Shown here: piece by piece, positions 1 to 13,273 of the stretch
Position numbering within the stretch: position 1 is the stretch's first letter
Layout of the letters: every line of letters begins with the position of its first letter
From: an uncultured Bacteroidales bacterium
GTDB taxonomy: Bacteria; Bacteroidota; Bacteroidia; Bacteroidales; UBA932
NCBI GenBank assembly: GCA_947588835.1
Contig: CANPZS010000005.1
Span: 6,741-70,740 of the forward strand
DNA length: 64,000 nt
Direction: 5' to 3'
Notes under the pieces: model-generated
Database searches by the model: none
Seen by the model: only the letters and a program-made list of their open reading frames with translations
Told to the model about the DNA's origin: nothing
Translations under genes and position numbers: made by a program

Positions 1-593
1 TGGCATCTATACTGTTTTAAATAATTAATATGTTCTGCTGTAATCAGTGTTGCATTTGTGGTGAAATCTGCTATAAGCTCAATATCTTTTTCTGCGCAGA
101 ACTCCCTGGCATAATCAAGCAACTGTTTGATCCCGTCAAAACAAAGAAAAGGTTCCCCTCCAAAGAATCCTAACTTTAGTGTTGAAAAAGGAGTATTTAT
201 ATAATGCAGAAATATATTTCTTTTAATTGCGTCAACAACTCTCTGTTCCAGTCTGCTTCCTACAATTTTATTTTCATAGCAATACCAACAATTTAGATTA
301 CAATCAAGAGACGTATTTACAACAACATTGTAAAGATCGGTACCCTCTACCATTTTTTCTTTTTGGACAAGTACATATTGATACTCATCAAAGTCATCTG
401 CAATAAGAAATTTACCTAATGTTAATTTACTGAATAACTCTTTATTTAGTGTCTCTAATTTTTCTATCTCACATTGGGAATACAAATCATGACATCTTTC
501 ATCAAGCAATAGAAAAGTATTACTTAATGCATTATAATGAAGATAATAACCTTGCGCTATTTCTTCACAAAATTGATATCTTGAAATCTTCAT
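1..593 (-). CDS. Radical SAM peptide maturase (SPASM/twitch type likely); 5' part only, runs off the window start; not in the ORF track
   Basis: Manual translation from ATG at 593: MKISRYQFCEEIAQGYYLHYNALSNTFLLLD...VVNTSLDCNLNCWYCYE...LGFFGGEPFL...DFTTNATLI. Contains the CxxxCxxC motif (nt 279-302), GGEP and TTNG-like motifs. Frame is open to base 1. Confidence 0.92.
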   Translation of the reverse strand, partial: MKISRYQFCEEIAQGYYLHYNALSNTFLLLDERCHDLYSQCEIEKLETLNKELFSKLTLGKFLIADDFDEYQYVLVQKEKMVEGTDLYNVVVNTSLDCNLNCWYCYENKIVGSRLEQRVVDAIKRNIFLHYINTPFSTLKLGFFGGEPFLCFDGIKQLLDYAREFCAEKDIELIADFTTNATLITAEHINYLKQYRC

Positions 594-607
594 AATAAAC
601 TTTAAAG

Positions 608-637
608 GAGCGTTGCTCCTAATATTGAGCAACGCTC
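608..637 (-). other. Perfect 11-bp stem hairpin between precursor and rSAM gene (attenuating terminator or mRNA stabiliser)
   Basis: GAGCGTTGCTC (608-618) and GAGCAACGCTC (627-637), 8-nt loop; followed on the minus strand by CTTT. Confidence 0.6.
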
Positions 638-648
638 GAAGATCTGAA

Positions 649-918
649 TTACGGTTGATCAGGTTTACTTACCACGCCCGGATCAATTGCACCGCAATAT
701 CCTGAAGCATTGTTGATCCCATTACAACGGCCTGAACCATTGTTGATCGTACCACAAGACCCACCGCCATTGTTCACACCACTACAAGTGCCATTGCCAT
801 TGTTTGTTGCTTCTTCATCAAGACCTGCGTTGCCTCCAACAACGAGAAGCATCTCGCTCTCCTGCATGACTTCCACAATCTGAAGCGGAAGATCCATCAA
901 CTTAGAAGAGTTTTTCAT
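649..918 (-). CDS. GG-leader RiPP precursor peptide with four 10-aa NNGxGxC repeats
   Basis: Leader ends MQESEMLLVVGG. Core is TNNGNGTCSG/VNNGGGSCGT/INNGSGRCNG/INNASGYCGA-ID. Lies 55 nt upstream of a co-oriented rSAM gene. Confidence 0.88.
   Translation of the reverse strand: MKNSSKLMDLPLQIVEVMQESEMLLVVGGNAGLDEEATNNGNGTCSGVNNGGGSCGTINNGSGRCNGINNASGYCGAIDPGVVSKPDQP
688..807 (-). repeat. Four degenerate 30-bp tandem repeats encoding the precursor core
   Basis: CATTGTT recurs on the + strand at 708, 738, 768 and 798 (30-nt period). Confidence 0.9.
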
Positions 919-1327
919 AAATACATTTAATTAAGTTTTCGCCTCTTATTAACGCAATTCGGCATCTGCGACATCTTTATACTGATATGTTCAGTTATAG
1001 TTTATTACCATATTATATAAATCATTTATAGCAGTATATAGTGCATAATAAGCATCGCCGGCAAAATATGAAAAAATTTTTTATTATAAAAATAAAAACC
1101 CTCTAATTATTTGATTTCATTTCCATTTTTGATATGCCGTCATCCGGAAAAATGGATTGCAGATCCAATGGTTACGAAATATCATTAATTATTAACAACA
1201 ACTTAATTGCAACATTTTTATTCCATAATGGCAGTCATTCAAACTCCGTACAACCTTTTTCAAGAAAAGTATGATTTTTAAAAAATTACACTAAAGTGTA
1301 ATTTGATTAATGTAAAAATTATTTATT

Positions 1328-1358
1328 TTTGTCACTGTGGTTGAGTTAATTATATTTG
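1328..1358 (+). promoter_or_regulatory. Bacteroidetes primary-sigma promoter for the right arm of the RiPP locus
   Basis: TTTG (1328-1331), 19-nt spacer, TATATTTG (1351-1358); matches the TTTG-N19-21-TAnnTTTG consensus. Confidence 0.7.
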
Positions 1359-1384
1359 AAGATATTAGAAAACGGCCGATACAC

Positions 1385-1398
1385 GCATAAATTTATGC
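1385..1398. promoter_or_regulatory. Perfect 14-bp palindrome, candidate operator
   Basis: GCATAAATTTATGC, located between the promoter and the ATG at 1424. Confidence 0.4.
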
Positions 1399-1423
1399 CA
1401 ATATTAATTTAAAAACTAAAACA

Positions 1424-1660
1424 ATGAAAAAGTACTCATTTTTAGCATTTGACATGCTGCGAAAGGAAGAGATTGCTTCCATTAAAGGAGGTAAAGCCAG
1501 TGACGTTAAGAAGTGTGGTTGCACCTGTGTGGGCCCACTTACGCCTATGCAGGTGGGCATTAACGCAGTAGATCGTGAAACCGATTCTTCGGATGAAGAA
1601 TGCAACGATTGTGGAGCTACTAATGCGCATCGCGCAACAAACGGACTTATACAACAATAA
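1424..1660 (+). CDS. GG-Bacteroidales family RiPP precursor (TIGR04149-like)
   Basis: Leader LRKEEIASIKGG, followed by CGCTC (CxCxC) and CNDCGATN; cognate rSAM and pseudo-rSAM genes lie downstream. Confidence 0.85.
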   Translation: MKKYSFLAFDMLRKEEIASIKGGKASDVKKCGCTCVGPLTPMQVGINAVDRETDSSDEECNDCGATNAHRATNGLIQQ

Positions 1661-1672
1661 AGCAAGTTTAAA

Positions 1673-4027
1673 ATGGCTGCCCGTCTGAAAATATTGTGCA
1701 TTGCCGCACTCTTGTCACTGTCCGTGACCGTCAACGCACAGGTGACTGACGGGCAGCTTGACTCAGTCATCAGGAACCTCAACCTGAAGGAAGTCGTCGT
1801 GACGGCAAAGAAAATCAAACAGGCCGGCGACACGATATCCTATTCGGCCGCCACCTACGCGGACAAAAACGACAAGACGCTTGAAGACCTGCTTCGCAAG
1901 ATGCCGGGAATCGAAGTCATGTCCGATGGACAGATCACCTACAACGGCCAGTGGATAAACGAGTTCTATATCGAAGGCCTCGACATGCTCGGCAGCAATT
2001 ACGGCGTGGCCACAAAAAATATAGACGTCCGCGACATAGGCTCCGTCCAGGTGCTCCAGAACCATCAGGACGTGAAGCTGCTCCAAGGAGTGAAAAACGG
2101 CGGCGCCCCGGCCATGAACATCAAACTGAAGAAAAACGCCCTCGGCATCTGGTCGTCCACGCTTCAGGCGGCGTTAGGAAGCCAGCCGCATCCGGCCTGG
2201 GACGCCTCCGCCGCCCTGATGAATTTCCGGCGCACGGCCCAGAACATCTCCGTCTACAAGACCAACAACATCGGCAATCCCCTGCGTCAGGATGTAAACG
2301 CCACGGCCACATTCAGTTCATCGTTCGGCACCGGACTTCTCTTTCCCGATTCCCCGGGCCTTGACGACAGGTACGCATACCGCAACAATTCACACAGCCT
2401 GTCGGTCAATCAGCTTTTCAAACTGGACGAGGACAAGACATTGTCCTTCAATCTGAATTATTTCTTCGACAAAGAAAAACGGGATGCGGCCGAGCAGACC
2501 TCCTACCTTGCCGACAGCCTGTCGCGGTATGTGGTGGATGAATCCGACCGGACCGACATGCGGCAGCATTTCGTGGGGACGCACGCCGTCTACAAGCTGA
2601 ACGGACGGAAACGCTATCTTAAGAACACCTTCGCGGCAAGCGCCTCTTTCCCTAACGGAAGCGGCACGGTCAACGATCTGATACGCCAGCGCTTCTCAGG
2701 GCATTCCATCAATGTCGACGACGTGCTGAAAATAAATTACAAAACGGCGAAGAACGGCATCGGCGAAACGGCCCTCCATGTCAGCTACAATGACAGACAA
2801 GGAACGCTGGACATAGACGGCCGCGGAACGTCGCAGACGGTTGGCAGGCGCAATCTCATCGCCGACGGTTCCGTCCATGTCGCGGCTGCGGCCGTGCCGC
2901 ATTTCATGTTCAACCTCAACTGCGACCTCGACGCCCGGTGGCAGCAGGCCGAGACCGCTTCGGACATGTCAGGAGTCCCCGAATCCGGGAGCCAGAGCAT
3001 CTGGCGCGCAGGTGCGCACATAACCCCGAAATTCCTTCTGCATTTCGGACAACGGTTCCAATGGCTCATTTACATACCCGCCGGCTTCGTATATTATGCT
3101 TCCGCCAACGGATCCTGGGAATACGACAGAACGTTCTTTTCCTTAAGGCCATATACCAATATTACGCTCAAGCCTTCGGACCGCCTGTCCTTCTCGCTGA
3201 CGTCGACCTGCGAGGAATCCATGCCCGACCCGCTTTCGCTCATGGTACAGCGGCGATACACCGACTACCGCACCGCGGTCTCCAATCCCTACCGTCTTGA
3301 AGCCAACATCGACAGGACGGTGAAGACGTCTTTGAACGCAAGCTACACAAACGTGCTGGACATGATCTTCGGAGGCCTGACCCTCACACACGTCTACTCG
3401 CGCAACAGCATCTCCGACGGGTACCGGATAACCGGCGATGTCATCGACTACGTACGGCTGCCCTATGCCACGGGCGTCAATATATGGCAGGGCGACCAGA
3501 CCTTTTCCAAAGGCTTTTTCAAATGGACTGCCAAGATAAGCGAATCGTTCTGCGTCGGTACGAGCCAAAGTGAATTTTACGTCGACGGCGCCATGCACAG
3601 GGGACGGAGCGACTATCTGCGTGCGACGGTCGCCTTCAACGCCGCCTTCGCCAGCTGGATCGCCTTTGACGCTTCAAACCGCTTCTCGCTGTCCAGAACG
3701 TTCACCGACGGAACCTCCAACGGAGGGGCGAAGCACACCTTCTCCAATACGGCCTCTCTCGTGCTTTGGCCTTGCAGGCGGCTCAGCATCAAGCCGTCCG
3801 CGATGTTCTATTACAACGACTATTCAACGAGCTACAGGAGCAACGTCTTCCTCAACTGCGACATGGAATACACCACAGGAAACCTCATTCTGTATCTCCA
3901 ATGCAGCAATCTACTGGACAGCAAAGTCTTCCGCAGCTTCAACGACAACGGAATCATACAACGCTCAAGCCAGTACATGCTCCGCGGACGGACCGTCCTG
4001 TTCGGGGTAAGGTTCAGAATTACATGA
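1673..4027 (+). CDS. Outer-membrane beta-barrel protein with TonB-dependent-receptor-like plug
   Basis: Signal peptide; LKEVVVTA; EDLLRKMPGIEV...FYIEGLD plug-like segment; amphipathic beta C-terminus (VLFGVRFRIT). Confidence 0.75.
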   Translation: MAARLKILCIAALLSLSVTVNAQVTDGQLDSVIRNLNLKEVVVTAKKIKQAGDTISYSAATYADKNDKTLEDLLRKMPGIEVMSDGQITYNGQWINEFYIEGLDMLGSNYGVATKNIDVRDIGSVQVLQNHQDVKLLQGVKNGGAPAMNIKLKKNALGIWSSTLQAALGSQPHPAWDASAALMNFRRTAQNISVYKTNNIGNPLRQDVNATATFSSSFGTGLLFPDSPGLDDRYAYRNNSHSLSVNQLFKLDEDKTLSFNLNYFFDKEKRDAAEQTSYLADSLSRYVVDESDRTDMRQHFVGTHAVYKLNGRKRYLKNTFAASASFPNGSGTVNDLIRQRFSGHSINVDDVLKINYKTAKNGIGETALHVSYNDRQGTLDIDGRGTSQTVGRRNLIADGSVHVAAAAVPHFMFNLNCDLDARWQQAETASDMSGVPESGSQSIWRAGAHITPKFLLHFGQRFQWLIYIPAGFVYYASANGSWEYDRTFFSLRPYTNITLKPSDRLSFSLTSTCEESMPDPLSLMVQRRYTDYRTAVSNPYRLEANIDRTVKTSLNASYTNVLDMIFGGLTLTHVYSRNSISDGYRITGDVIDYVRLPYATGVNIWQGDQTFSKGFFKWTAKISESFCVGTSQSEFYVDGAMHRGRSDYLRATVAFNAAFASWIAFDASNRFSLSRTFTDGTSNGGAKHTFSNTASLVLWPCRRLSIKPSAMFYYNDYSTSYRSNVFLNCDMEYTTGNLILYLQCSNLLDSKVFRSFNDNGIIQRSSQYMLRGRTVLFGVRFRIT

Positions 4028-4060
4028 CATTAAAATATATCAACCAAAAACATCATAGAT

Positions 4061-4936
4061 ATGAAAAAGACTCTTATTGCATTGGCGGCCGCCATGATGC
4101 TCACATGCGCAAACGCATATTCCCAGATCACCGTGTCCTACGCGATGGATACTCCCTCGTTCACTCTTGCCCATGAAGACACCGACAGATATCAGACGCT
4201 CGACACCTGTTATCTCACGATTACCTATCGGTTCAGGTACAAGGCCACAGAAAAAGACGACTCCCTCAGCCGCGAAGACCTTCTGGACCTCCAGCTCGGA
4301 CGAAGGTACAACGCCTTCTTCAGCCGCAATCTCCGTGAACTCGACATCCAGAACACAAAAGACTTCAAGACCACTATGCAGTTTACGCCCGTCCCCAGCG
4401 ATTATGTCGGCTTCGACCTCCTCATCAGCCACGGCGATTCCACGACGGCCGTCACCAACCGTATCCCCTACACTACACAGGTGATCGAATATAAAGAACA
4501 TACTCCCCTCCCGGCGTGGACATACGTTCCCGAAGAAATCGACACGGTGATGGGCTACCCCTGCCATGTCGCAAAATGCGATTACGGGGGCAGGGAATGG
4601 AAAGCCTGTTACACCAACGACATCCCGCTGCCGTACGGACCGTGGAAACTCAACGGAGTCAAGGGTCTGGTCCTCAAAGCCGAGGATGCCGGACATGAGT
4701 TCGTATTCGAAGCCGAAGGCCTCACCCAGAATCCGCAGCCGATAATCCGCTACGACTGGAACAGAAAGACCATGGACAAAGACGAATGGGCACGGTTCGA
4801 GCGCGATATGTACAAAAACGCCGGAGCGTTCGTCCGCAACACCGGCGCCCGCATCCTTATCATGGACAATAGCGAAAAAGGCTTCCATGTCTTGAACGAG
4901 GCCTGGTCGGAATATTATAATCCCTTAGAAAAATAA
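4061..4936 (+). CDS. GLPGLI family protein
   Basis: Signal peptide; YPCHVAKCDYGGREWKACYTNDIPLPYGPWKLNGVKGLVL matches the GLPGLI C-terminal signature. Confidence 0.85.
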   Translation: MKKTLIALAAAMMLTCANAYSQITVSYAMDTPSFTLAHEDTDRYQTLDTCYLTITYRFRYKATEKDDSLSREDLLDLQLGRRYNAFFSRNLRELDIQNTKDFKTTMQFTPVPSDYVGFDLLISHGDSTTAVTNRIPYTTQVIEYKEHTPLPAWTYVPEEIDTVMGYPCHVAKCDYGGREWKACYTNDIPLPYGPWKLNGVKGLVLKAEDAGHEFVFEAEGLTQNPQPIIRYDWNRKTMDKDEWARFERDMYKNAGAFVRNTGARILIMDNSEKGFHVLNEAWSEYYNPLEK

Positions 4937-4937
4937 T

Positions 4938-6344
4938 ATGGAAACAATATCGGCGGCGTCAGGCAATAATTATATATATGAACAAAGGACGGGGTATGTT
5001 TCCCTCGTCCCAAACTCGTATGTGTCCCACGGGAATCATTCTTCATATTATTCAGAAAAAATTAAATATTTAAAGCATTTTGGACTTATTTCGGCAGATT
5101 CGGAACCGGAATACAGACTATTAGAAAAACAAGATATTGAAGACGCCCTGATTAATACACATCAAATAATACTCGAAGTAACGGATAAATGTAACCTTGA
5201 TTGTTATTATTGTGGTTATGGGCACTTCTACGATAATTATAATGCCAGAGAGAATATAGATATGTCATTTGATGTTTTTAAGACATTGTATGATCATCTT
5301 AATAAAATTTGGGAAAGCAATAATAACAAAGGGTGTACGTATCTGCGTATTTCTTTTTATGGAGGAGAACCGTTGTGTAATTTTTCATTTATAAAGGAGG
5401 CTGTCGATTATACGAAACACAATCCTATTAAAAATAAAAGGATTGTTTTCTCAATGACGACAAATGCGGTTCTTTTGGATCGATACATGGAATTTCTTGT
5501 GGCCAACAATTTTGAGATTCTTATTAGTCTTGACGGAAACAAGTTCAACGATTCGTATAGGGTCTTTAAAAATGGTAAAAGTTCTTTTGATACAGTTATC
5601 GCAAATATTGATAAGCTTTATAGCTCTTATCCATCTTTTTTTGCGCGGAACGTGAAATTTAACAGTGTATTACATAATCGTAACTCGGTAAAGGATACAA
5701 ACTCTTTCATCTTTACAAGATATCAAAAATATCCAATGACAAATGAATTAAATGTTTTTGGGATTGCCAAGTCAAAACGTTCTGATTTCTTAAAGATATT
5801 TCACTCTAAAACAAAAGATTTTTCATTAATGACCGAAGATGAAAAAAAAGAGTATGAAAATCAATCTCCATTTATGTATCAATATAAGAGGTGGGCATTT
5901 AATACTCTTATGAAAACCTATTCCACAAATCTTTTAAATGCTCTGTCAGAGGATTATGTAAGTCCAAAAACTTCTATTAATCTCAAATTGCCGACCAAAA
6001 CATGCATACCTTTCTCACGGAAAATTTTTGTTTCTGTTAATGGCGATTTGTTTCCTTGTGAAAGAATTGGCAATGAATTTGATTTTGGGAGAATATATGA
6101 CGGTAAAGTTGAGATACATTTTGACAAGATAATAAGCCAATATAATCAATTGTTTGCAAAGTATACAAATATCTGCAATGGCTGCAAGGCTAAAGATTTT
6201 TGTTCTGTATGCATTGTGTCTGATATTAATGGATATGAGATTTGCAGCCGAACTAAACCTCGGAATATAGCAGAATTTATCTCGTTTTCTGAGATACACC
6301 CCGACATCCTTAAAAAAATCATCAAAACCGTATCAATTATTTAA
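4938..6344 (+). CDS. Radical SAM/SPASM peptide maturase, GG-Bacteroidales family (TIGR04148-like)
   Basis: CNLDCYYCGYG, FYGGEP, MTTNAVL, ISLDG; C-terminal CIPF...PCER...CNGC...CSVC auxiliary-cluster cysteines. Confidence 0.92.
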   Translation: METISAASGNNYIYEQRTGYVSLVPNSYVSHGNHSSYYSEKIKYLKHFGLISADSEPEYRLLEKQDIEDALINTHQIILEVTDKCNLDCYYCGYGHFYDNYNARENIDMSFDVFKTLYDHLNKIWESNNNKGCTYLRISFYGGEPLCNFSFIKEAVDYTKHNPIKNKRIVFSMTTNAVLLDRYMEFLVANNFEILISLDGNKFNDSYRVFKNGKSSFDTVIANIDKLYSSYPSFFARNVKFNSVLHNRNSVKDTNSFIFTRYQKYPMTNELNVFGIAKSKRSDFLKIFHSKTKDFSLMTEDEKKEYENQSPFMYQYKRWAFNTLMKTYSTNLLNALSEDYVSPKTSINLKLPTKTCIPFSRKIFVSVNGDLFPCERIGNEFDFGRIYDGKVEIHFDKIISQYNQLFAKYTNICNGCKAKDFCSVCIVSDINGYEICSRTKPRNIAEFISFSEIHPDILKKIIKTVSII

Positions 6345-6346
6345 TT

Positions 6347-7555
6347 ATGGGAGAATCGCTTTATTTCTACTTAGAACCTTATGTGTATGTAAAGAAGGGT
6401 GAAAAAGAACTGCTTATTGTCAATTTGCTTGATGATAAAGCAATTATATTTAAAGATTCCGCGTCAATTAAAATAGGGAATCTCTTGCTGTCATCACAAT
6501 ATAGAACGATAAAGATTACAGAAAACGACAAAAATATTCCCATAGTAATTAATGCTATAAAAAACTATATGGGGGACATCGTCTCTGCTATGGCACAGCC
6601 ACTGCAGTTTGATTCCGAGATTAATAATCTTTCAGGCATTGAGGCCTACAGAAAGGCTACTGTCTACTCCAAATACAACATCGGGGGATTCATCTCTAAT
6701 TGTACCATGTTTGTGGATATGAAAAACCAAGATAGCTATGACTATATTAAATTCATAACAGGAATTGAATCAACTCCTGAAAATGCTATTTATAATGCTT
6801 CTTTCAAAATGAATGAGGAAGATATAGACTATTACATTCAAGAACTGATTAAAATCAATCCCAACATTATACTAAATATCTGTGGTGTTAATCAGCATCT
6901 TTTTGATTATATTTCAAGTAATTATCCATCCACCATACTTAATCTTGTTATTTCATTACGGACTCTGCAATTATATCCCGACATACTTAATCGTATCAAG
7001 AAGAAAAAATTAAGATATACATTATTATTAGATTTATCTCATGACAATTATAATTGCTACATAAACGATGAACTATGTTCTATTTATGTCAAAGTCACGA
7101 ATGACAAAGATCTTTATAATGCTTATAATCTATCAGAAACAGGTTGTCAGGTTAAATTATGCCCTATCTTAACTTCGAAAAATAAAGATTTTATAAAATC
7201 TTTATTTTCAATATCGTACAAAGAATTGTTAAATATTAAAAATAAATATAGAACAATTAAAATTAACAACTTAATAAACAGTAATTTTTGGGGTAATATA
7301 TATCTTTTTCCGCAAGGAAAGGTTCGCTATTCATTGGGTTGCGGTCAATTAATTGAATTCCATCAACTTTATGAGAAGTACAAAAATGATTTTCTAAATG
7401 GCTCCTTTGAATGGACTTTTATTAGAAATTTCTCGAACTGCAGCACTTGTATATTTCAATATCTTTGTCCTTCGCCAAATTATATTGAAACACATCTAAG
7501 GGAGAAAAACCTAATCAAATGTTTAATATCCAAAGATGCAAAAGTTTCCTCATAA
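6347..7555 (+). CDS. Pseudo-rSAM protein (TIGR04150-like)
   Basis: YFYLEPYVYV N-terminus; no CxxxCxxC; retains C-terminal CSTCIFQYLCPSP; 2 nt after the rSAM gene. Confidence 0.8.
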   Translation: MGESLYFYLEPYVYVKKGEKELLIVNLLDDKAIIFKDSASIKIGNLLLSSQYRTIKITENDKNIPIVINAIKNYMGDIVSAMAQPLQFDSEINNLSGIEAYRKATVYSKYNIGGFISNCTMFVDMKNQDSYDYIKFITGIESTPENAIYNASFKMNEEDIDYYIQELIKINPNIILNICGVNQHLFDYISSNYPSTILNLVISLRTLQLYPDILNRIKKKKLRYTLLLDLSHDNYNCYINDELCSIYVKVTNDKDLYNAYNLSETGCQVKLCPILTSKNKDFIKSLFSISYKELLNIKNKYRTIKINNLINSNFWGNIYLFPQGKVRYSLGCGQLIEFHQLYEKYKNDFLNGSFEWTFIRNFSNCSTCIFQYLCPSPNYIETHLREKNLIKCLISKDAKVSS

Positions 7556-7689
7556 GGAAATTTCATTAATTACGTTTCTGGCCGATACCGGCAAATATGG
7601 CATCATACTCGACCACTAAGCCATCGCTGACATGGAACAATTTTTGTACTTTTACTATCGGACCAATCAATCTTTAACAAGGCAAAATT

Positions 7690-8091
7690 ATGAATAAATA
7701 TTGCTTCAAGGCAGTTCTTCTGCTTATTGGTATTTCTTCGTTAGCGGCATCTTGCACGAAAACAATTGTGGAAGACAATCCGGACTGGTGGACTTTCTCT
7801 ATAGAAAATCTATTGGACGAAAATGTTATCATCAGTGGGAGCGTCAATGAGAATCAGTTTTCCATAACGCTGTCTCCGAAAGAATCTTATTCTTATACTC
7901 AAGATATAAGGAGCGGTTCTATAGAGAATGGGAAAACAGCTATCTTTTTAGCGGCTTCAATAAAATTAACTGGAACAGCTGCAGGAACTGTAGAGTATCA
8001 GACGACAGCGGATTTTAAAAAGAAGTGGACAGAAGAAGATGAACATCAATTGGTATTCAAGATTAACGGTTCTCTTTTCCAAACCGAATGA
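7690..8091 (+). CDS. Lipoprotein of unknown function
   Basis: Lipobox LAASC after a basic/hydrophobic N-terminus; overlaps the next gene by 4 nt. Confidence 0.75.
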   Translation: MNKYCFKAVLLLIGISSLAASCTKTIVEDNPDWWTFSIENLLDENVIISGSVNENQFSITLSPKESYSYTQDIRSGSIENGKTAIFLAASIKLTGTAAGTVEYQTTADFKKKWTEEDEHQLVFKINGSLFQTE

Positions 8092-10217
8092 TTTACAAAA
8101 TTCGTGAAAAATTCGTTGTCCTTATCGTTTTATGTACGGCAAATCAACTGTCCGCACAAAGCGCCGACAGTCTTGATGTCGTTGATACATTGGACAATAG
8201 TATCATGACTCTGGATGAAGTCGTCGTTTCCGCGCCTTTAATCAGCCAGAACAAATACGGGAGCACCTATCTGATTACCGAGAGTCTGAGGGAAAAGGTC
8301 AGTTCTCCCGTTCAGATGTTGAATTACATTGACGGCGTGATATACAATGAGATTGACAATTCCGTCAAAGTCAGGACTGATTCGCGGGTGCTGCTGTCGG
8401 TCGACGGGATTGAGCGGGATCTCAATTACATTATGAGCCTGCCTCCTGCGCGTATAGCGAAAATAGAAATAAAGAACATACCCGAAGCGAAATATATCGC
8501 GGAAGGATATAAATATGTCATCAATTATAAATTGAAGAACGATTGGATCGGGCACTATTTATATGTGCAGAATTATGATATGCTGTCACCCGGCAACAAC
8601 GGGAAAAATGTCGTCGCGAATGAGCAGCCACGGATACAATACATGTTTACCGACAAGAAAATGGATTTTCATATAGGATATGGATTTGCGGACATTCATT
8701 GGAATTATCCCATATCATACGAAAAATCTTATTTCAACAAGATTGATGCCGCCTCCATCGAGGCCGGGCCAAAGAATCCTAACGACAATAACACAAATAT
8801 CGCACACAATCTTGCCGCCGGGATAGATTATCATATTTCACCCGGTCATACGATAGTGTGGAAAGCGAACTGGTTAAATTCCGATGCCGATCATATTGCA
8901 TCATATAATCGGCATGATGAACTTTCAGGCGGAACGTCATACGGCGAAACACAGCAGGACAAGTCCGATGATGAGGATTTCAGCACATCGCTCATATATA
9001 GAGGAATTATAAACGATAAGTGGACTTTATATTCGGCCGTCGGCTATAATTACATAGGACAGAGCACATTGAACAAATATGAGCAACTCGGCGGAGATAG
9101 CGGATATATTAGTGTGAGCAGATATGACAATCGGAAGAATTATGTACGGGGCGAAGCCGACGCGACATACAATGTCAATGACCGGCTGAGCTTCAATGCC
9201 GGCTACATAGGGACATGGAACGAATATCTCTCAAGACCGCTGAATTCTGATGGCGGGACATCACGGATCAATGAGAATCGGCAGCATGCGTATGCATATC
9301 TTGATTATTCTCCTGCTCCAAATGCGTTGCTTCACATGGGCGTGGGAGCCGAACGCATCAACAATGTCAGTAAATCATGGTATTGGCTTCCGCAAATGAC
9401 GTTCAGCTATGTCTTTTCGGAGAGCTCCCAATTGACGGTGGATTATTCGTCAAAGATAATATATCCAAAGATGTATCAGATTATTAAAACATCTTACGAT
9501 ATAGATGAGCATGTCGTTTTTAACGGGAATCCGGAATTGTCTCCTTCACGGGTCCATTCATTGTCCGTTCAAGGAACAGTCAAAGACAACCTTCTGGTGG
9601 GGGCGTCATACAACTATACCGACAATTATATAGCGGACTTATATACGGCCGACTCCGATAAAATAATAAAAAAATTTACAAATGCCGACAATCATTATTT
9701 CACAGGCTATATGGCCTATGATTGGAACATCACGGACAACATCTCATGGAGCAACATTGCGCAGGTCAGCTTTGAAGCCATATCCAATAATACATACAGG
9801 AAACAGTTCTACAACTTCTCGTTCAACAGCCAATTCAATTATTGGATAGACCCGATAAAGATGCAGACCTCCGTATCCTGGCAGCGCAATATGATAAAGG
9901 AACCTCTTCTTCAAGGCTGGAACAACATAGGACAGGATTATTGGATGCTGTCGCTGCAAAAAGGGTTTTGGAAGGACCGTATATATGCATCAATATCGTA
10001 TCTTCCTCCGATACATTTGGGAGTAAGGCCATTTCAATACAATGTCGTGGAAACCGACTTTTACAGACAGACCGTCAAACAAAACCTGAGGACGTATGAC
10101 AATATGGTCATGATCAGAATTCATTTCCGTTTATCTTCCGGCAGACAAAGGTCGTCAGACAGAGTTCCGGATTTCGAATTTGAAAATGAAGGGAAGAAAG
10201 ATAAAGGATTGCTTTAA
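8088..10217 (+). CDS. Outer-membrane beta-barrel family protein (plug + barrel)
   Basis: Signal peptide; LDEVVVSAP; LLSVDGIER...IAKIEI...VINYKLK plug-like region; FNGNPELSPS; beta-rich C-terminus. Confidence 0.75.
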   Translation: MIYKIREKFVVLIVLCTANQLSAQSADSLDVVDTLDNSIMTLDEVVVSAPLISQNKYGSTYLITESLREKVSSPVQMLNYIDGVIYNEIDNSVKVRTDSRVLLSVDGIERDLNYIMSLPPARIAKIEIKNIPEAKYIAEGYKYVINYKLKNDWIGHYLYVQNYDMLSPGNNGKNVVANEQPRIQYMFTDKKMDFHIGYGFADIHWNYPISYEKSYFNKIDAASIEAGPKNPNDNNTNIAHNLAAGIDYHISPGHTIVWKANWLNSDADHIASYNRHDELSGGTSYGETQQDKSDDEDFSTSLIYRGIINDKWTLYSAVGYNYIGQSTLNKYEQLGGDSGYISVSRYDNRKNYVRGEADATYNVNDRLSFNAGYIGTWNEYLSRPLNSDGGTSRINENRQHAYAYLDYSPAPNALLHMGVGAERINNVSKSWYWLPQMTFSYVFSESSQLTVDYSSKIIYPKMYQIIKTSYDIDEHVVFNGNPELSPSRVHSLSVQGTVKDNLLVGASYNYTDNYIADLYTADSDKIIKKFTNADNHYFTGYMAYDWNITDNISWSNIAQVSFEAISNNTYRKQFYNFSFNSQFNYWIDPIKMQTSVSWQRNMIKEPLLQGWNNIGQDYWMLSLQKGFWKDRIYASISYLPPIHLGVRPFQYNVVETDFYRQTVKQNLRTYDNMVMIRIHFRLSSGRQRSSDRVPDFEFENEGKKDKGLL

Positions 10218-10251
10218 TCCAAATTGTTTAACCATTTAATATTTTAGCAAC

Positions 10252-10434
10252 ATGTCAACAAAGACTAATGAAAGACTTGATTTTCTCTCAGAAGCAGAGC
10301 AAGTCAAAGTAATGGGTGGCACTTCAGAGACATCATCTCTAGAGAGCGAAATTTTTATCTATATTGTAAAAAATTGCGGGTGGAAAGATTGTAAGAAAAT
10401 TTGTACAATCAATCCTATACCGTTTGATCGTTAA
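10252..10434 (+). CDS. Third GG-leader peptide (Ser/Thr-rich linker, 3-Cys core)
   Basis: Leader LSEAEQVKVMGG fits the double-Gly consensus; core TSETSSLESEIFIYIVKNCGWKDCKKICTINPIPFDR; AT-rich 5' leader. Confidence 0.7.
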   Translation: MSTKTNERLDFLSEAEQVKVMGGTSETSSLESEIFIYIVKNCGWKDCKKICTINPIPFDR

Positions 10435-10563: not shown

Positions 10564-11058
10564 CTAATGCCGTCCGCCAAACATTTTTCGCAAGATATTG
10601 CTTGATGATTGGACTATCAGAAAGTCCATGCTTTGATGTTCCGCCGTTTTCAGTTCATCAGTATTGAAACGGCATAGCGCTTCCTGTTGCCCTAAAGTAT
10701 CCCTGATGGAAGACAAGTGCAGCAGTGTTCCATCTATTGTACCACCGGCGGACTGCAGTCTGATCGTCAGGCCCTCGGCATCGTCTGGCCGTTTGTTTTC
10801 GAATTTGAGCAGGATTGTAGTTTCCGTGCTGTCCGACATATTGTCCGATCGTACGGCATGGATGATCGCTGTCCCCGGACATACTTGTTTGTACGGCAAA
10901 AAATAAGCTACGACGAATAGACAGGCCAGTACTGCCCCTATGACGGTTATTCCGTAACGGACAAGCGAAGAAGGGATCTGTCCCACTATACTGCGCACCT
11001 TTTCGCTGCGTAGTTCGAAAGTATGATCATTTTTATTCGTCATGTTTTCTTTCCCCAT
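10564..11058 (-). CDS. Short HlyD/membrane-fusion-protein-like accessory protein (about 164 aa)
   Basis: FELRSEKVRSIVGQIPSSLVRYGITVI plus a TM helix, typical of the Bacteroidetes HlyD N-terminus; no long coiled coil; ATG 1 nt after the ABC transporter stop. Confidence 0.7.
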   Translation of the reverse strand: MGKENMTNKNDHTFELRSEKVRSIVGQIPSSLVRYGITVIGAVLACLFVVAYFLPYKQVCPGTAIIHAVRSDNMSDSTETTILLKFENKRPDDAEGLTIRLQSAGGTIDGTLLHLSSIRDTLGQQEALCRFNTDELKTAEHQSMDFLIVQSSSNILRKMFGGRH

Positions 11059-11059
11059 A

Positions 11060-13273
11060 TCAATTTCCAAGTTCAAGCTGATTCCTTACCAATGCATAAT
11101 ATTTTCCTTTCTTCGCCGTCAGTTCTTCGTGCGTGCCTGTTTCAACGATTTTTCCTTTATCCAAAACCACAATCTGATCGGCATTTCGGACGGTCGAAAG
11201 ACGATGCGCAACTATGACAACGGTTTTTCCTATATAGAAATCAGACAGGTTTTCGGTGATGATCCGTTCATTGCCGGCGTCAAGAGCATTGGTGGCCTCG
11301 TCCAGAAATACGAACATCGGGTTCTTGTACACCACGCGGGCTATCAGTATTCGCTGCCTCTGCCCCTGACTTATGCCCTGTCCATCCTGACCTATTATAG
11401 TATTGTAACCTAACGGAAGATCTTCTATATAATCGGCAATATTCGCAATGCGTGCGGCATAACGTATTCGTTCGATGTCGGGTTCATCATCGGACACGGC
11501 GATATTGCGGGCGATAGTGTCGGAGAAGAGATATCCTTCCTGCATAACGGCTCCGCATTGATTTCTCCACCAACTTAGATTGTATTCGTTCAGATTGCCG
11601 TCTCCGACCCGTATGCAGCCGCACGATGGTTCATAGAATCCCAGAAGCAATTTGACAAGGGTGGTCTTTCCGCTCCCGCTTGCACCTACGATTGCAGTTA
11701 CTTTCCCGTTGGGGATATATAGGTTGATGTCGGAAAGTACATCCTGCGGGCTATAGAGATCGTATTTGAAGCAAAGTCCTCCGATATTGATCGAGTGTCC
11801 CTTGGACGTATCCTCGGTATAACTATTGCGTGTCCTGCCGTCGTTTTCCTCGTCGGTTTCAGTATGTATCTCGTTCATGCGGTCAAGGCTGATGCTTACA
11901 TCTTGCCAAGAGTAAATGAACCGGATCAGCTGCTCCACGGGGCCGTTGAGTTGTCCGATAATGTATTGCACCGCCAGCATCATGCCCAATGTCATGTCGC
12001 CGTGTATCACAGCCGTAGCCGCAAGGACGGTAATAAGAATGTTTTTAACTTCATTGATGGTGATGCTGCCCGCCTGTTGTATCTGCTGCAGGTTGAGAGA
12101 CTGGAGATTGACTTTGAAGAGGTCAGCCTGCACATCCTCCCATTCCCAGCGTTTCCGCTGTTCGCAGCCTTGCAGTTTGATTTCCTGCATGCCATCAATA
12201 AGATGATAGGTCACATTGCGGTTCTTTCCGGCCTGTTCGAAATATTTATAGTCGAGCTGACGGCGTTTCTTGAGGAACAGAACGATCCAGCACGCATATA
12301 GCGATGTACCGATAAGGAAAATAAGGAATATAAGCGGATTGTAGACAGCCAGAACGACGCCGAACACAATAAATGTGAAAAATGAAAATAGTACGGTCAA
12401 GCTGCCTGATGTTAGGAACTGCTCCACTCGTCGGTGGTCTTCTATACGCTGCAGTAGGTCACCCATCAACTTTGTATCAAAGAATTTCATCGGCAGTTTC
12501 ATCAACTTGATGAAGAAATCGCTGATAAGTGAAATATTGATACGCGCAGATATATGAAGGAGTATTTTGGATCGGATAAACTCAATGGCGGTGCGGCTGA
12601 ATAAAAGCATCATTTCCGCCAGCAGTACCAGCCAGATAAAACTTACGTCTTTTCCGCCGATGCCCGTATCCACGATGGCCTGAGTCAGGAAAGGAAAAAC
12701 GAGCTGCAGAAGCGAGCCAAGTAAAAGACCCAATATCAGCTGAATGAAGAAACGGCTGTATTTTTTGAGATAACTCCATAAAAAACTTAGGCGGTTTTTT
12801 CCCGAATGCTGTTTATTGTCCATTTGCGAATGAAACGGTTCGGCAGGTTCAAGCAGCAGAACGATGCCTTTCTCTTCGCCGTCCGTTTGAGTGCTTGCCC
12901 AATGCTCGCAGAATTCCTCCTTGTCGTATGTCATCATTCCCTTTCCAGGGTCCGCGACATACACCGTATATCCGCCGTTACGATGTTTCCGGATTTTATG
13001 GACAACGACAAAATGATTTTGGTTCCAATGAACGATGCATGGCAATGGAGCATCGGACGTGAGTGTGACAAATGTAATTTTTCCGCCAAGGCTTTTCATT
13101 CCCATTGCCTCCGCCGCCTTGCCTATGCCTAAAAGAGAAACACCGTCTTTTCCAAGAGAACATAATTTTCTAATCTGGTTCATATCAGGCCGTTTCCCAA
13201 AAAAAGAGACGATCATTGCCAGACATGCGGCTCCACAGTCCATGGAATCAAATTGTTTTATCAGCCGTATCAT
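11060..13273 (-). CDS. Peptidase C39-containing ABC transporter (GG-leader processing and export)
   Basis: QFDSMDCGAACL (Cys), HWNQNHFVV (His), VADPG (Asp); TM domain; GASGSGKT, SQGQRQR, LDEATNALD. Start moved to ATG 13273. Confidence 0.95.
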   Translation of the reverse strand: MIRLIKQFDSMDCGAACLAMIVSFFGKRPDMNQIRKLCSLGKDGVSLLGIGKAAEAMGMKSLGGKITFVTLTSDAPLPCIVHWNQNHFVVVHKIRKHRNGGYTVYVADPGKGMMTYDKEEFCEHWASTQTDGEEKGIVLLLEPAEPFHSQMDNKQHSGKNRLSFLWSYLKKYSRFFIQLILGLLLGSLLQLVFPFLTQAIVDTGIGGKDVSFIWLVLLAEMMLLFSRTAIEFIRSKILLHISARINISLISDFFIKLMKLPMKFFDTKLMGDLLQRIEDHRRVEQFLTSGSLTVLFSFFTFIVFGVVLAVYNPLIFLIFLIGTSLYACWIVLFLKKRRQLDYKYFEQAGKNRNVTYHLIDGMQEIKLQGCEQRKRWEWEDVQADLFKVNLQSLNLQQIQQAGSITINEVKNILITVLAATAVIHGDMTLGMMLAVQYIIGQLNGPVEQLIRFIYSWQDVSISLDRMNEIHTETDEENDGRTRNSYTEDTSKGHSINIGGLCFKYDLYSPQDVLSDINLYIPNGKVTAIVGASGSGKTTLVKLLLGFYEPSCGCIRVGDGNLNEYNLSWWRNQCGAVMQEGYLFSDTIARNIAVSDDEPDIERIRYAARIANIADYIEDLPLGYNTIIGQDGQGISQGQRQRILIARVVYKNPMFVFLDEATNALDAGNERIITENLSDFYIGKTVVIVAHRLSTVRNADQIVVLDKGKIVETGTHEELTAKKGKYYALVRNQLELGN

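Follow-up and report, generated by a model that had tools for sequence, protein, structure and literature searches.

An asparagine-cysteine repeat peptide, a radical SAM/SPASM enzyme and a TonB-dependent transporter encoded together in gut Bacteroidales

The DNA analysed here (the window) is a stretch of 64,000 nucleotides from a contig of an uncultured Bacteroidales bacterium (G000:C5:6741-70740). Its left end carries, on the minus strand, a gene for a small repeat peptide followed by the 5' part of a gene for a radical S-adenosylmethionine (SAM)/SPASM maturase. The maturase gene occupies positions 1..593 (-), a stretch of 593 nt that holds the first 197 codons of 431 aa. Its frame is open across 3-593 to the edge of the window and reads MKISRYQF...CNLNCWYC...FFGGEP...TTNATL from the ATG at 593. 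An earlier note, made from the window alone, had described this unlisted open reading frame (ORF) as a radical SAM protein with the last three of these motifs, and had placed 55 nt ahead of it a double-glycine (GG) leader peptide gene with a Cys-repeat core; the translation agrees, the coordinates and motifs were all correct, and the spacer between the precursor stop codon and the enzyme ATG is indeed 55 nt long (594-648). Completion of the gene to the left, which the note had proposed, gives C5:6041-7333, extending 699 nt beyond the window, and a protein of 431 aa with seven SPASM cysteines whose neighbour is a TonB-dependent transporter (TBDT).

The precursor peptide gene lies at 649..918 (-), with its stop codon at 649-651, and encodes 89 aa arranged as a 29-aa double-glycine leader, a 9-aa linker, four 10-residue NNxxGxC repeats and a Pro-containing tail. 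The full peptide is MKNSSKLMDLPLQIVEVMQESEMLLVVGG (leader) followed by NAGLDEEAT-NNGNGTC-SGV-NNGGGSC-GTI-NNGSGRC-NGI-NNASGYC-GAIDPGVVSKPDQP, and the leader ends in ...MQESEMLLVVGG. Double-glycine leaders are recognised by hydrophobic residues at -4, -7 and -12, an acidic residue at -8, GG at -2/-1 and a C39 ABC transporter in the locus; the precursor reads M(-12)QESE(-8)M(-7)LLV(-4)VGG. The same leader pattern is common to all homologous peptides, and cleavage after the glycines is predicted from it. Four homologues of the precursor, 60-99% identical to it, retain both leader and repeats. Searched against NCBIfam and Pfam along with seven homologous peptides, the window precursor had no match at E <= 0.01, and four homologous precursors gave nothing significant, with one chance match at E 0.06. 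Tandem Repeats Finder detected no DNA-level repeat in window 600-950, which argues that the periodicity is maintained by selection on the protein. No perfect site for a Bacteroides-type promoter (TAnnTTTG) precedes the Asn-Cys precursor. Before the divergent TIGR04148-type precursor on the plus strand there are two perfect -7 boxes of this kind (1324 and 1351, in region 1324-1358), each with TTTG about 20 nt upstream. A search of window 1-1500 against Rfam gave just one sub-threshold chance match.

The complete enzyme consists of a domain resembling the recognition element (RRE) of enzymes for ribosomally made peptides that are modified post-translationally (RiPPs) (residues 1-85), a radical SAM core and a SPASM domain. 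It belongs to the radical SAM superfamily: Pfam matches it to PF04055 (55 bits, cut-off 29.5) and to Fer4_12, and the cluster motif C98-x3-C102-x2-C105 is invariant among 95 homologues. SPASM domains are defined by a C-terminal CX9-15GX4C ... CX2CX5CX3C ... C arrangement that binds two auxiliary 4Fe-4S clusters, and the enzyme has C317-x13-G-x4-C336, C377-x2-C380-x5-C386-x3-C390 and C403. These seven cysteines are invariant or 99% conserved in the same 95 homologues, while a possible eighth, C315, is Cys in only 49%. A seven-cysteine state has been reported for CteB, Tte1186 and QhpD (PMC10352776), and would fit with auxiliary cluster I having an open iron site. An AlphaFold (AF2) model of the enzyme, built on the 95-sequence alignment, has a predicted local distance difference test score (pLDDT) of 95.3 and a predicted template modelling score (pTM) of 0.92. 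At its N-terminus it shows three strands and three helices within residues 7-59 (E7-13, E16-21, E26-31, H32-40, H43-49, H51-59) at pLDDT > 90, after which come the radical SAM barrel and the SPASM domain. CteB (5wgg/5why) is both the best sequence match in the PDB (E 2e-18) and the best fold match (TM-score 0.70 over the full length), followed in fold by TigE, the anaerobic sulfatase-maturating enzyme (anSME) and SuiB; the full-length alignment with CteB takes in the N-terminal domain of CteB. The N-terminal domain is thereby predicted to be of the RRE type, the kind that binds leader peptides, in keeping with the leader-binding extension of about 85 aa that the note had proposed.

In NCBIfam the enzyme can be aligned over its whole length to many radical SAM/SPASM peptide maturases, and reaches the cut-off of none. 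The best score is to TIGR04463 (129.2 bits against a cut-off of 525), and NF038107 CefB follows with 125.7 bits against 600; the suggestion that the enzyme falls in no recognised family is therefore borne out. Equally, it had been set apart from the GG-Bacteroidales module next to it. Membership of TIGR04148 takes at least 300 bits, a TIGR04150 pseudo-rSAM partner and a TIGR04149 precursor; the enzyme scores 55.6 bits, no locus has a pseudo-rSAM in its cassette, and the precursor has no NCBIfam match, so this assignment was rejected. The window's own TIGR04148 enzyme is about 25% identical to it over 157 aa.

A word-index search retrieved 547 homologous cluster representatives of the enzyme, annotated just as 'radical SAM/SPASM domain-containing protein' and once as a sulfatase maturase, and a scan of species-representative genomes gave 69 loci. 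Loci were treated as informative if they held an intact enzyme of at least 38% identity and readable upstream DNA. A GG-leader peptide with Asn/Cys repeats stands directly upstream of the enzyme, and co-oriented with it, in 36/36 of these; this and the 547 homologues place the gene pair far beyond chance. Adjacency to NNGxGxC-type peptides was the test set beforehand in the earlier note, and its outcome was positive; the note had read the precursor-then-enzyme layout as a RiPP system. More distant enzymes (27-32% identity) adjoin other Cys-rich GG peptides. At L012, L034 and L038 the enzyme match is N-terminally truncated and there is no upstream peptide within 1.5 kb; a rescue of these loci was rejected, and they look like decayed copies.

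The family is not rare and is widespread in gut Bacteroidales. It is carried, among others, by Segatella copri, Bacteroides, Parabacteroides, Muribaculaceae and a number of strains of Porphyromonas gingivalis, and the order of peptide, enzyme and TBDT is kept across Prevotellaceae, Bacteroidaceae, Tannerellaceae and Muribaculaceae. Within an even sample of the window's order, matches at E <= 1e-60 were patchy and in one copy, occurring in 16/401 genomes (the window's included), in 0/3 genomes of the same genus and in 0/4 of the same family. A profile search of 1.84 billion representatives returned 1,304 proteins at E <= 1e-30, with scores that fall off smoothly. Ten representatives, taken from close to distant, were all below the NCBIfam cut-offs, suggesting that the whole clade is uncurated. 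Two cassettes were found in bins with Firmicutes labels, Oribacterium sp. (L021) and Clostridia bacterium (L028); they are near-identical or close to Prevotella/Segatella copies (L020, L022, L030), and these are more likely to be mis-binned Bacteroidales contigs than cases of cross-phylum transfer. In a Parabacteroides locus (L014:3035-4001), about 740 nt separate precursor and enzyme and contain ORFs resembling transposase fragments (…YKKRWLVELFFK); this operon may have been disrupted by the insert.

The repeat motif was analysed by aligning every cysteine of 30 peptide cores. Class 1, to which the window precursor belongs, has a period of 10, with N at -6 in 59/60, N at -5 in 58/60 and G at -2 in 60/60 cysteines, and in 16/17 of its peptides the number of Asn pairs equals the number of Cys. 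Class 2, chiefly from Prevotella and Muribaculaceae, has a period of 9, with [IV] at -6 and N at -5 in 64/69 cysteines, and a third class follows the pattern [VI]N[NES]GxGCxC. An Asn five residues ahead of nearly every Cys is shared by all the classes, and precursors of the family carry 2-8 tandem units. A maximum-likelihood tree of the 36 enzymes groups them by the repeat class of their precursors and not by host taxon (class-1 clade 100/99). Repeat class changes label three times on this tree, which is the minimum, and Segatella, Bacteroides, Parabacteroides and Muribaculaceae hosts are intermixed in it.

To the left of the window, the enzyme stop overlaps by 17 nt the start of a co-oriented gene for a 762-aa protein, and rpsL, rpsG, fusA and rpsJ come after it. 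The protein matches CarboxypepD_reg and OMP_b-brl_3 in Pfam, with a weak Plug match in a homologue. TBDTs are characterised by an N-terminal TonB box, a plug domain and a 22-strand barrel; the protein has a conserved TonB-box-like LDEVxVxA ahead of the plug, and its AF2 model (pLDDT 84.8) matches the plug-and-barrel proteins PirA, Cir, OprC, PhuR, ChuA, BtuB and ZnuD at E 1e-18 to 1e-15. We assign it to the TBDT family, its dependence on TonB being predicted from the sequence and the model. At 46 of about 50 loci the next gene after the enzyme encodes a protein of the same family, about 760 aa long. Identities of the transporter to its relatives (75/70/59/41%) track those of the enzyme (80/79/70/61%), which suggests that the two have been inherited together.

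The conservation of this context also bears on whether the enzyme could be a radical SAM protein with a housekeeping task, for instance an anaerobic sulfatase maturase or a cofactor maturase, with the small ORF as a chance neighbour or no gene at all. One P. gingivalis homologue has been deposited as 'anaerobic sulfatase-maturating enzyme', and an anaerobic sulfatase maturase was one of the outcomes by which the earlier note would have been refuted. Such enzymes score at least 349 bits to TIGR03942, have a sulfatase substrate and carry fully ligated auxiliary clusters (8 Cys). The window enzyme scores 65.7 bits and has seven SPASM cysteines, not eight; no sulfatase lies nearby, and it is the peptide around which the context is conserved, so the assignment was rejected. 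Added to this, the order of peptide, enzyme and TBDT is conserved across four families, an RRE domain is predicted, and the single copy has a patchy distribution in the order. A housekeeping function is accordingly very improbable.

We think it rather probable that the precursor, the radical SAM/SPASM maturase and the TBDT make up a RiPP cassette of three co-oriented genes in which one Asn-Cys thioether ring is formed per repeat. This reading is supported by the CteB-like architecture, the seven-cysteine SPASM domain and the one-to-one conservation of Asn and Cys. The product would most likely be ranthipeptide- or sactipeptide-like, that is, with a Cys sulfur joined to a non-alpha carbon (ranthipeptide) or to the alpha carbon (sactipeptide) of another residue. 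A precedent for the bond is NxxcB, which forms an Asn beta-thioether in NxxC motifs (PMC9389541). In the mechanism that we propose, an excess of precursor would be produced, with read-through limited or a short transcript stabilised by a hairpin beyond the precursor stop codon, and the RRE-like N-terminal domain would dock the double-glycine leader. The radical SAM cluster would then cleave SAM to give a 5'-deoxyadenosyl radical that takes a hydrogen from an Asn of each repeat. The carbon radical would be trapped by that repeat's own Cys thiol, bound, as in CteB and NxxcB, to the open iron of auxiliary cluster I. Each NNxxGxC unit would in this way acquire one thioether ring, giving four rings and a shift of -8 Da in the manner of 'beads on a string'. 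A C39 ABC transporter of the surrounding island could cut after the GG and export the core, and the co-transcribed TBDT could pass the peptide out across the outer membrane or back into the periplasm. Repeats have no aromatic residue, Lys or Arg at conserved positions, which leaves the known C-C and cyclophane chemistries without a substrate.

Several points weigh against this reading. The Pfam SPASM model PF13186 gave no score on the window enzyme (it is precomputed on 3/120 homologues among the matches listed), and the enzyme is just 14-19% identical to its solved relatives. Scores to the thioether-forming families are far below their cut-offs, at 87.5 bits against 340 for NF047865 PapB and 67.9 bits against 425 for the SCIFF maturase TIGR03974. 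With identity so low and every curated family out of reach, the chemistry cannot be transferred by homology. The exporter of the island, a C39-peptidase ABC transporter (PCAT), shares just 56% identity with its counterpart in L072, the closest relative of the cassette, and may belong primarily to the neighbouring TIGR04148 module. Finally, the ring topology is ambiguous on the peptide sequences, since Cys-x3-Asn, the direction of PapB, is also frequent, and in class 2 the insertions lengthen the segment from Asn to the following Cys (L035, L036), a point in favour of Cys-x3-Asn.

That last point leads to a different product from the same RiPP, in which each Cys is joined to the Asn/Asp four residues downstream, as in the PapB product freyrasin. 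Three or four rings would then bridge adjacent repeats (CSGVN, CGTIN, CNGIN, CGAID). PapB, which makes six Cys-X3-Asp/Glu thioethers, is the precedent (PMC9413430). An Asn at +4 is present at 41/60 class-1 and 54/69 class-2 cysteines, less constantly than the Asn at -5. The last Cys of the window precursor has an Asp at +4, as do two of the three closest precursor homologues, the third having it at +5; and the longer-spaced class-2 peptides mentioned above keep CxxIN while the Asn-to-Cys side lengthens. The ends of the arrays, however, favour pairing within the repeat unit (Asn-x4-Cys): the first repeat always begins with an Asn pair that has no Cys ahead of it, and the last Cys usually has no Asn/Asp at +4 (L018 ends ...GYCK), though class-2 tails keep the CxxI spacer with the Asn replaced. 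In class 1 the insertions sit between Cys and the next Asn, so that peptides with 11-residue spacing (L015-L017) keep NNxxGxC and break Cys-x3-Asn, which again favours Asn-x4-Cys. We infer rings within the repeat, to a carbon of the Asn, and consider the reverse direction rather unlikely.

The distance of the enzyme from every characterised family also leaves some room for radical chemistry without a thioether. The enzyme could, for example, oxidise a C-H bond of Cys/Asn (to an anSME-like formylglycine or a dehydro residue), epimerise a residue or form a new link from Asn. In that case the cysteines would be free or in disulfides and perhaps bind metal, and the peptide, once loaded, would be a metallophore that the TBDT takes up. 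Metallophore uptake typically has a TBDT of its own, OprC (copper) and ZnuD (zinc) are among the fold matches of the transporter, and anSME is among the best structural matches of the enzyme. These TBDT matches do not discriminate between substrates, however, and the seven-cysteine SPASM domain and CteB-like fold suit thioether synthases. Asn and Cys moreover co-vary one to one. Chemistry of this other kind thus seems unlikely, and thioether formation within each repeat remains the reading that we prefer.

Under the preferred reading, a possible control of precursor and enzyme levels lies in the spacer between the two genes. A stem-loop at 608..637 (-) has an 11-bp GC-rich stem (GAGCGUUGCUC/GAGCAACGCUC) and lies inside the 55-nt spacer. 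Folding of the 76-nt stretch 585-660 gives -23.9 kcal/mol (z = -5.3), a stability that 0/200 shuffles reached. In related loci the spacer is more stable than its shuffles (z <= -2.4) in 32/34 cases, mostly through one strong hairpin; the hairpin sequences are unrelated, and several are followed by U-runs. RiPP operons usually make much precursor and little enzyme. The spacer hairpin is probably an attenuator or an mRNA-stabilising element that would give a high ratio of precursor to enzyme.

The PCAT of the island is encoded at 11060..13273 (-), its translation showing QFDSMDCGAAC and an ABC ATPase, and it is the only PCAT found in the genome near the Asn-Cys system. A C39 ABC transporter comes after the TBDT in many relatives, and the island PCAT is 56-81% identical to those directly after the transporter gene in the L008, L015, L029, L030, L039 and L042 cassettes. 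Its counterpart beside the Prevotella disiens cassette (L042) is 81% identical, and the one at L030 77%. Set beside the 56% to L072, this pattern indicates that exporter and cassette differ in history. We regard the island PCAT as the probable leader peptidase and exporter for the Asn-Cys peptide and for the other GG-leader peptides of the island. Downstream of it, at 10564..11076 (-), the translation gives a mini-HlyD-like membrane protein of about 170 aa, which shares the motif ELRSEKVR..IGQ.P..LVR..T with a 157-aa protein of L053. The same PCAT/mini-HlyD pair precedes the L053 cassette, which suggests by its gene order that the mini-HlyD protein may take part in the Asn-Cys system.

L053 displays the fullest arrangement on one strand: PCAT, mini-HlyD, TPR protein, DUF3244 protein, precursor, enzyme and TBDT. 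In 15 loci (including L010:1454-3674, L053:1383-3531 and L072:3257-5619), an upstream gene encodes a protein of 520-620 aa with a lipoprotein signal, TPR repeats, a transmembrane (TM) segment and a helix-turn-helix (HTH)-like tail; it is BT3442-like at 116 bits, below the cut-off. Most of the 15 loci have an ORF of about 115-135 aa between this TPR regulator and the precursor. The three such ORFs tested were all DUF3244 (two above the Pfam cut-off) and weakly BT3441-like. In B. thetaiotaomicron, the MACPF toxin-like cluster BT_3433-3442 likewise begins with a BT3442/BT3441 pair (PMC2954219), which suggests that, across Bacteroidales, the TPR and DUF3244 pair is a regulatory module of general use for secreted factors in antagonism or signalling. 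The two-gene system of the earlier note is thus part of a larger one: its precursor/enzyme pair is real, and to it are added the TBDT and, in relatives, the C39 exporter, mini-HlyD, TPR and DUF3244 genes.

No TPR regulator or DUF3244 gene lies near the window cassette, and a search of the genome gave one weak TPR match (contig C69) and zero for DUF3244. PCAT and mini-HlyD are on the cassette strand (-) and are split from the cassette by a 9-kb opposite-strand block (1424-10434, +) whose genes are the TIGR04148/04150 module and those for a GLPGLI protein, two further barrels, a lipoprotein and a third GG peptide. This block occupies the position of the TPR regulator and DUF3244 genes in relatives, and the island looks like an Asn-Cys cassette locus with the block placed inside it. 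Every GG peptide of the island has its own TonB-type barrel.

A possible role for the TBDT could be the re-import of the peptide as a signal or metallophore, or it could serve as an outer-membrane exit route; Oar of Myxococcus is a precedent for TBDT-dependent secretion. On a more speculative view, the parts found in relatives would form a secrete/re-import/sense circuit, in which the PCAT exports the Asn-Cys peptide, the co-evolving TBDT returns it and the periplasmic TPR domain of the TPR-TM-HTH regulator reads it, the window copy having lost its regulator pair to the inserted TIGR04148 module. We consider such a circuit improbable; if true, it would be a new form of Gram-negative peptide quorum sensing in gut Bacteroidales, based on Asn-x4-Cys ring chemistry.

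The genes of the cassette differ in GC content at third codon positions (GC3), which is 0.29 for the enzyme, 0.41 for the precursor and 0.67 for the overlapping TBDT within one operon (window 1-918, C5:3766-7333). Genome-like genes have values of 0.66 (rpsL) and 0.71 (fusA), and the genome GC is 52.6%. A split in the same direction occurs at L003 (0.24 vs 0.53), L006 (0.50 vs 0.81) and L075 (0.35 vs 0.46). In the neighbouring TIGR04148 module (1424-7555), rSAM and pseudo-rSAM genes are at 0.30 and 0.29 vs 0.74 for the barrel and 0.69 for GLPGLI. Recent transfer of the enzyme alone was rejected as the cause, because four-fold sites are saturated (0.32-0.38 identical) in both enzyme and transporter against their closest relatives.

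A radical SAM/SPASM RiPP system with a GG leader is of a well-known kind; the enzyme-peptide family itself is uncurated, and no curated family or PDB entry covers it. We found no description of the enzyme family or of NNxxGxC peptides in the searchable full-text literature, whose coverage leaves out subscription journals. The streptococcal NxxcA/NxxcB system is similar in that a radical SAM/SPASM enzyme joins the thiol of a Cys to a carbon of the Asn upstream of it, in the same Asn-then-Cys orientation as proposed here, with thiol activation proposed on an auxiliary cluster (PMC9389541). It differs in its single N-x-x-C motif and its quorum-regulated operon in a Gram-positive host, whereas in the window family, compared with NxxcB by description, there are 2-8 tandem units and a GG leader, Asn and Cys are separated by four residues, the host is Gram-negative and the system has a TBDT of its own. 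PapA/PapB of Paenibacillus polymyxa, which yields the ranthipeptide freyrasin, likewise involves a radical SAM/SPASM enzyme and a product that is a string of small rings (PMC9413430), but its acceptor is Asp/Glu with the Cys N-terminal to it, and PapB has no TBDT partner. CteA/CteB, which makes thermocellin, a SCIFF ranthipeptide, shares the architecture of RRE, radical SAM and seven-cysteine SPASM; CteB is 17% identical to the window enzyme and makes a Cys-Thr gamma-thioether, and SCIFF precursors (TIGR03973) are unrelated to the repeat peptide. TIGR04463 (very short Cys-rich peptide maturase) and NF038107 CefB (Cys-every-fifth) are also full-length RRE/radical SAM/SPASM maturases, defined bioinformatically beside Cys-rich peptides, but the precursors of the window family have a periodicity of 9-10 and an obligatory Asn instead of a Cys at every fifth residue. 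To our knowledge, neither of these families has a known product. The TIGR04148/04149/04150 GG-Bacteroidales system, 500 bp away, resembles the Asn-Cys cassette in combining a GG-leader peptide with a radical SAM/SPASM enzyme in Bacteroidales, with a TonB-type barrel after each, and the two probably share the C39 exporter. The cassette differs from it in having no pseudo-rSAM partner and an unrelated precursor.

As far as we know, nearly all characterised radical-SAM thioether peptides come from Firmicutes. A survey found ranthipeptides to be 'largely absent' from Bacteroidota, and the ranthipeptide mining rules of the antiSMASH type key on SCIFF precursors (PMC13289728), so that the Asn-Cys family would be missed by them. 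Abundant gut and oral Bacteroidales nevertheless carry this mobile, co-evolving peptide-enzyme-transporter cassette, and its repeat motif gives a sharp prediction of -2 Da per NNxxGxC unit. If the proposed chemistry is true, Asn-x4-Cys would be a new ring type and the precursor a modular scaffold for multi-ring peptides. The cassette would then also be the first RiPP in Bacteroidota tied to a dedicated TBDT, which raises the question of how and why modified peptides cross the outer membrane.

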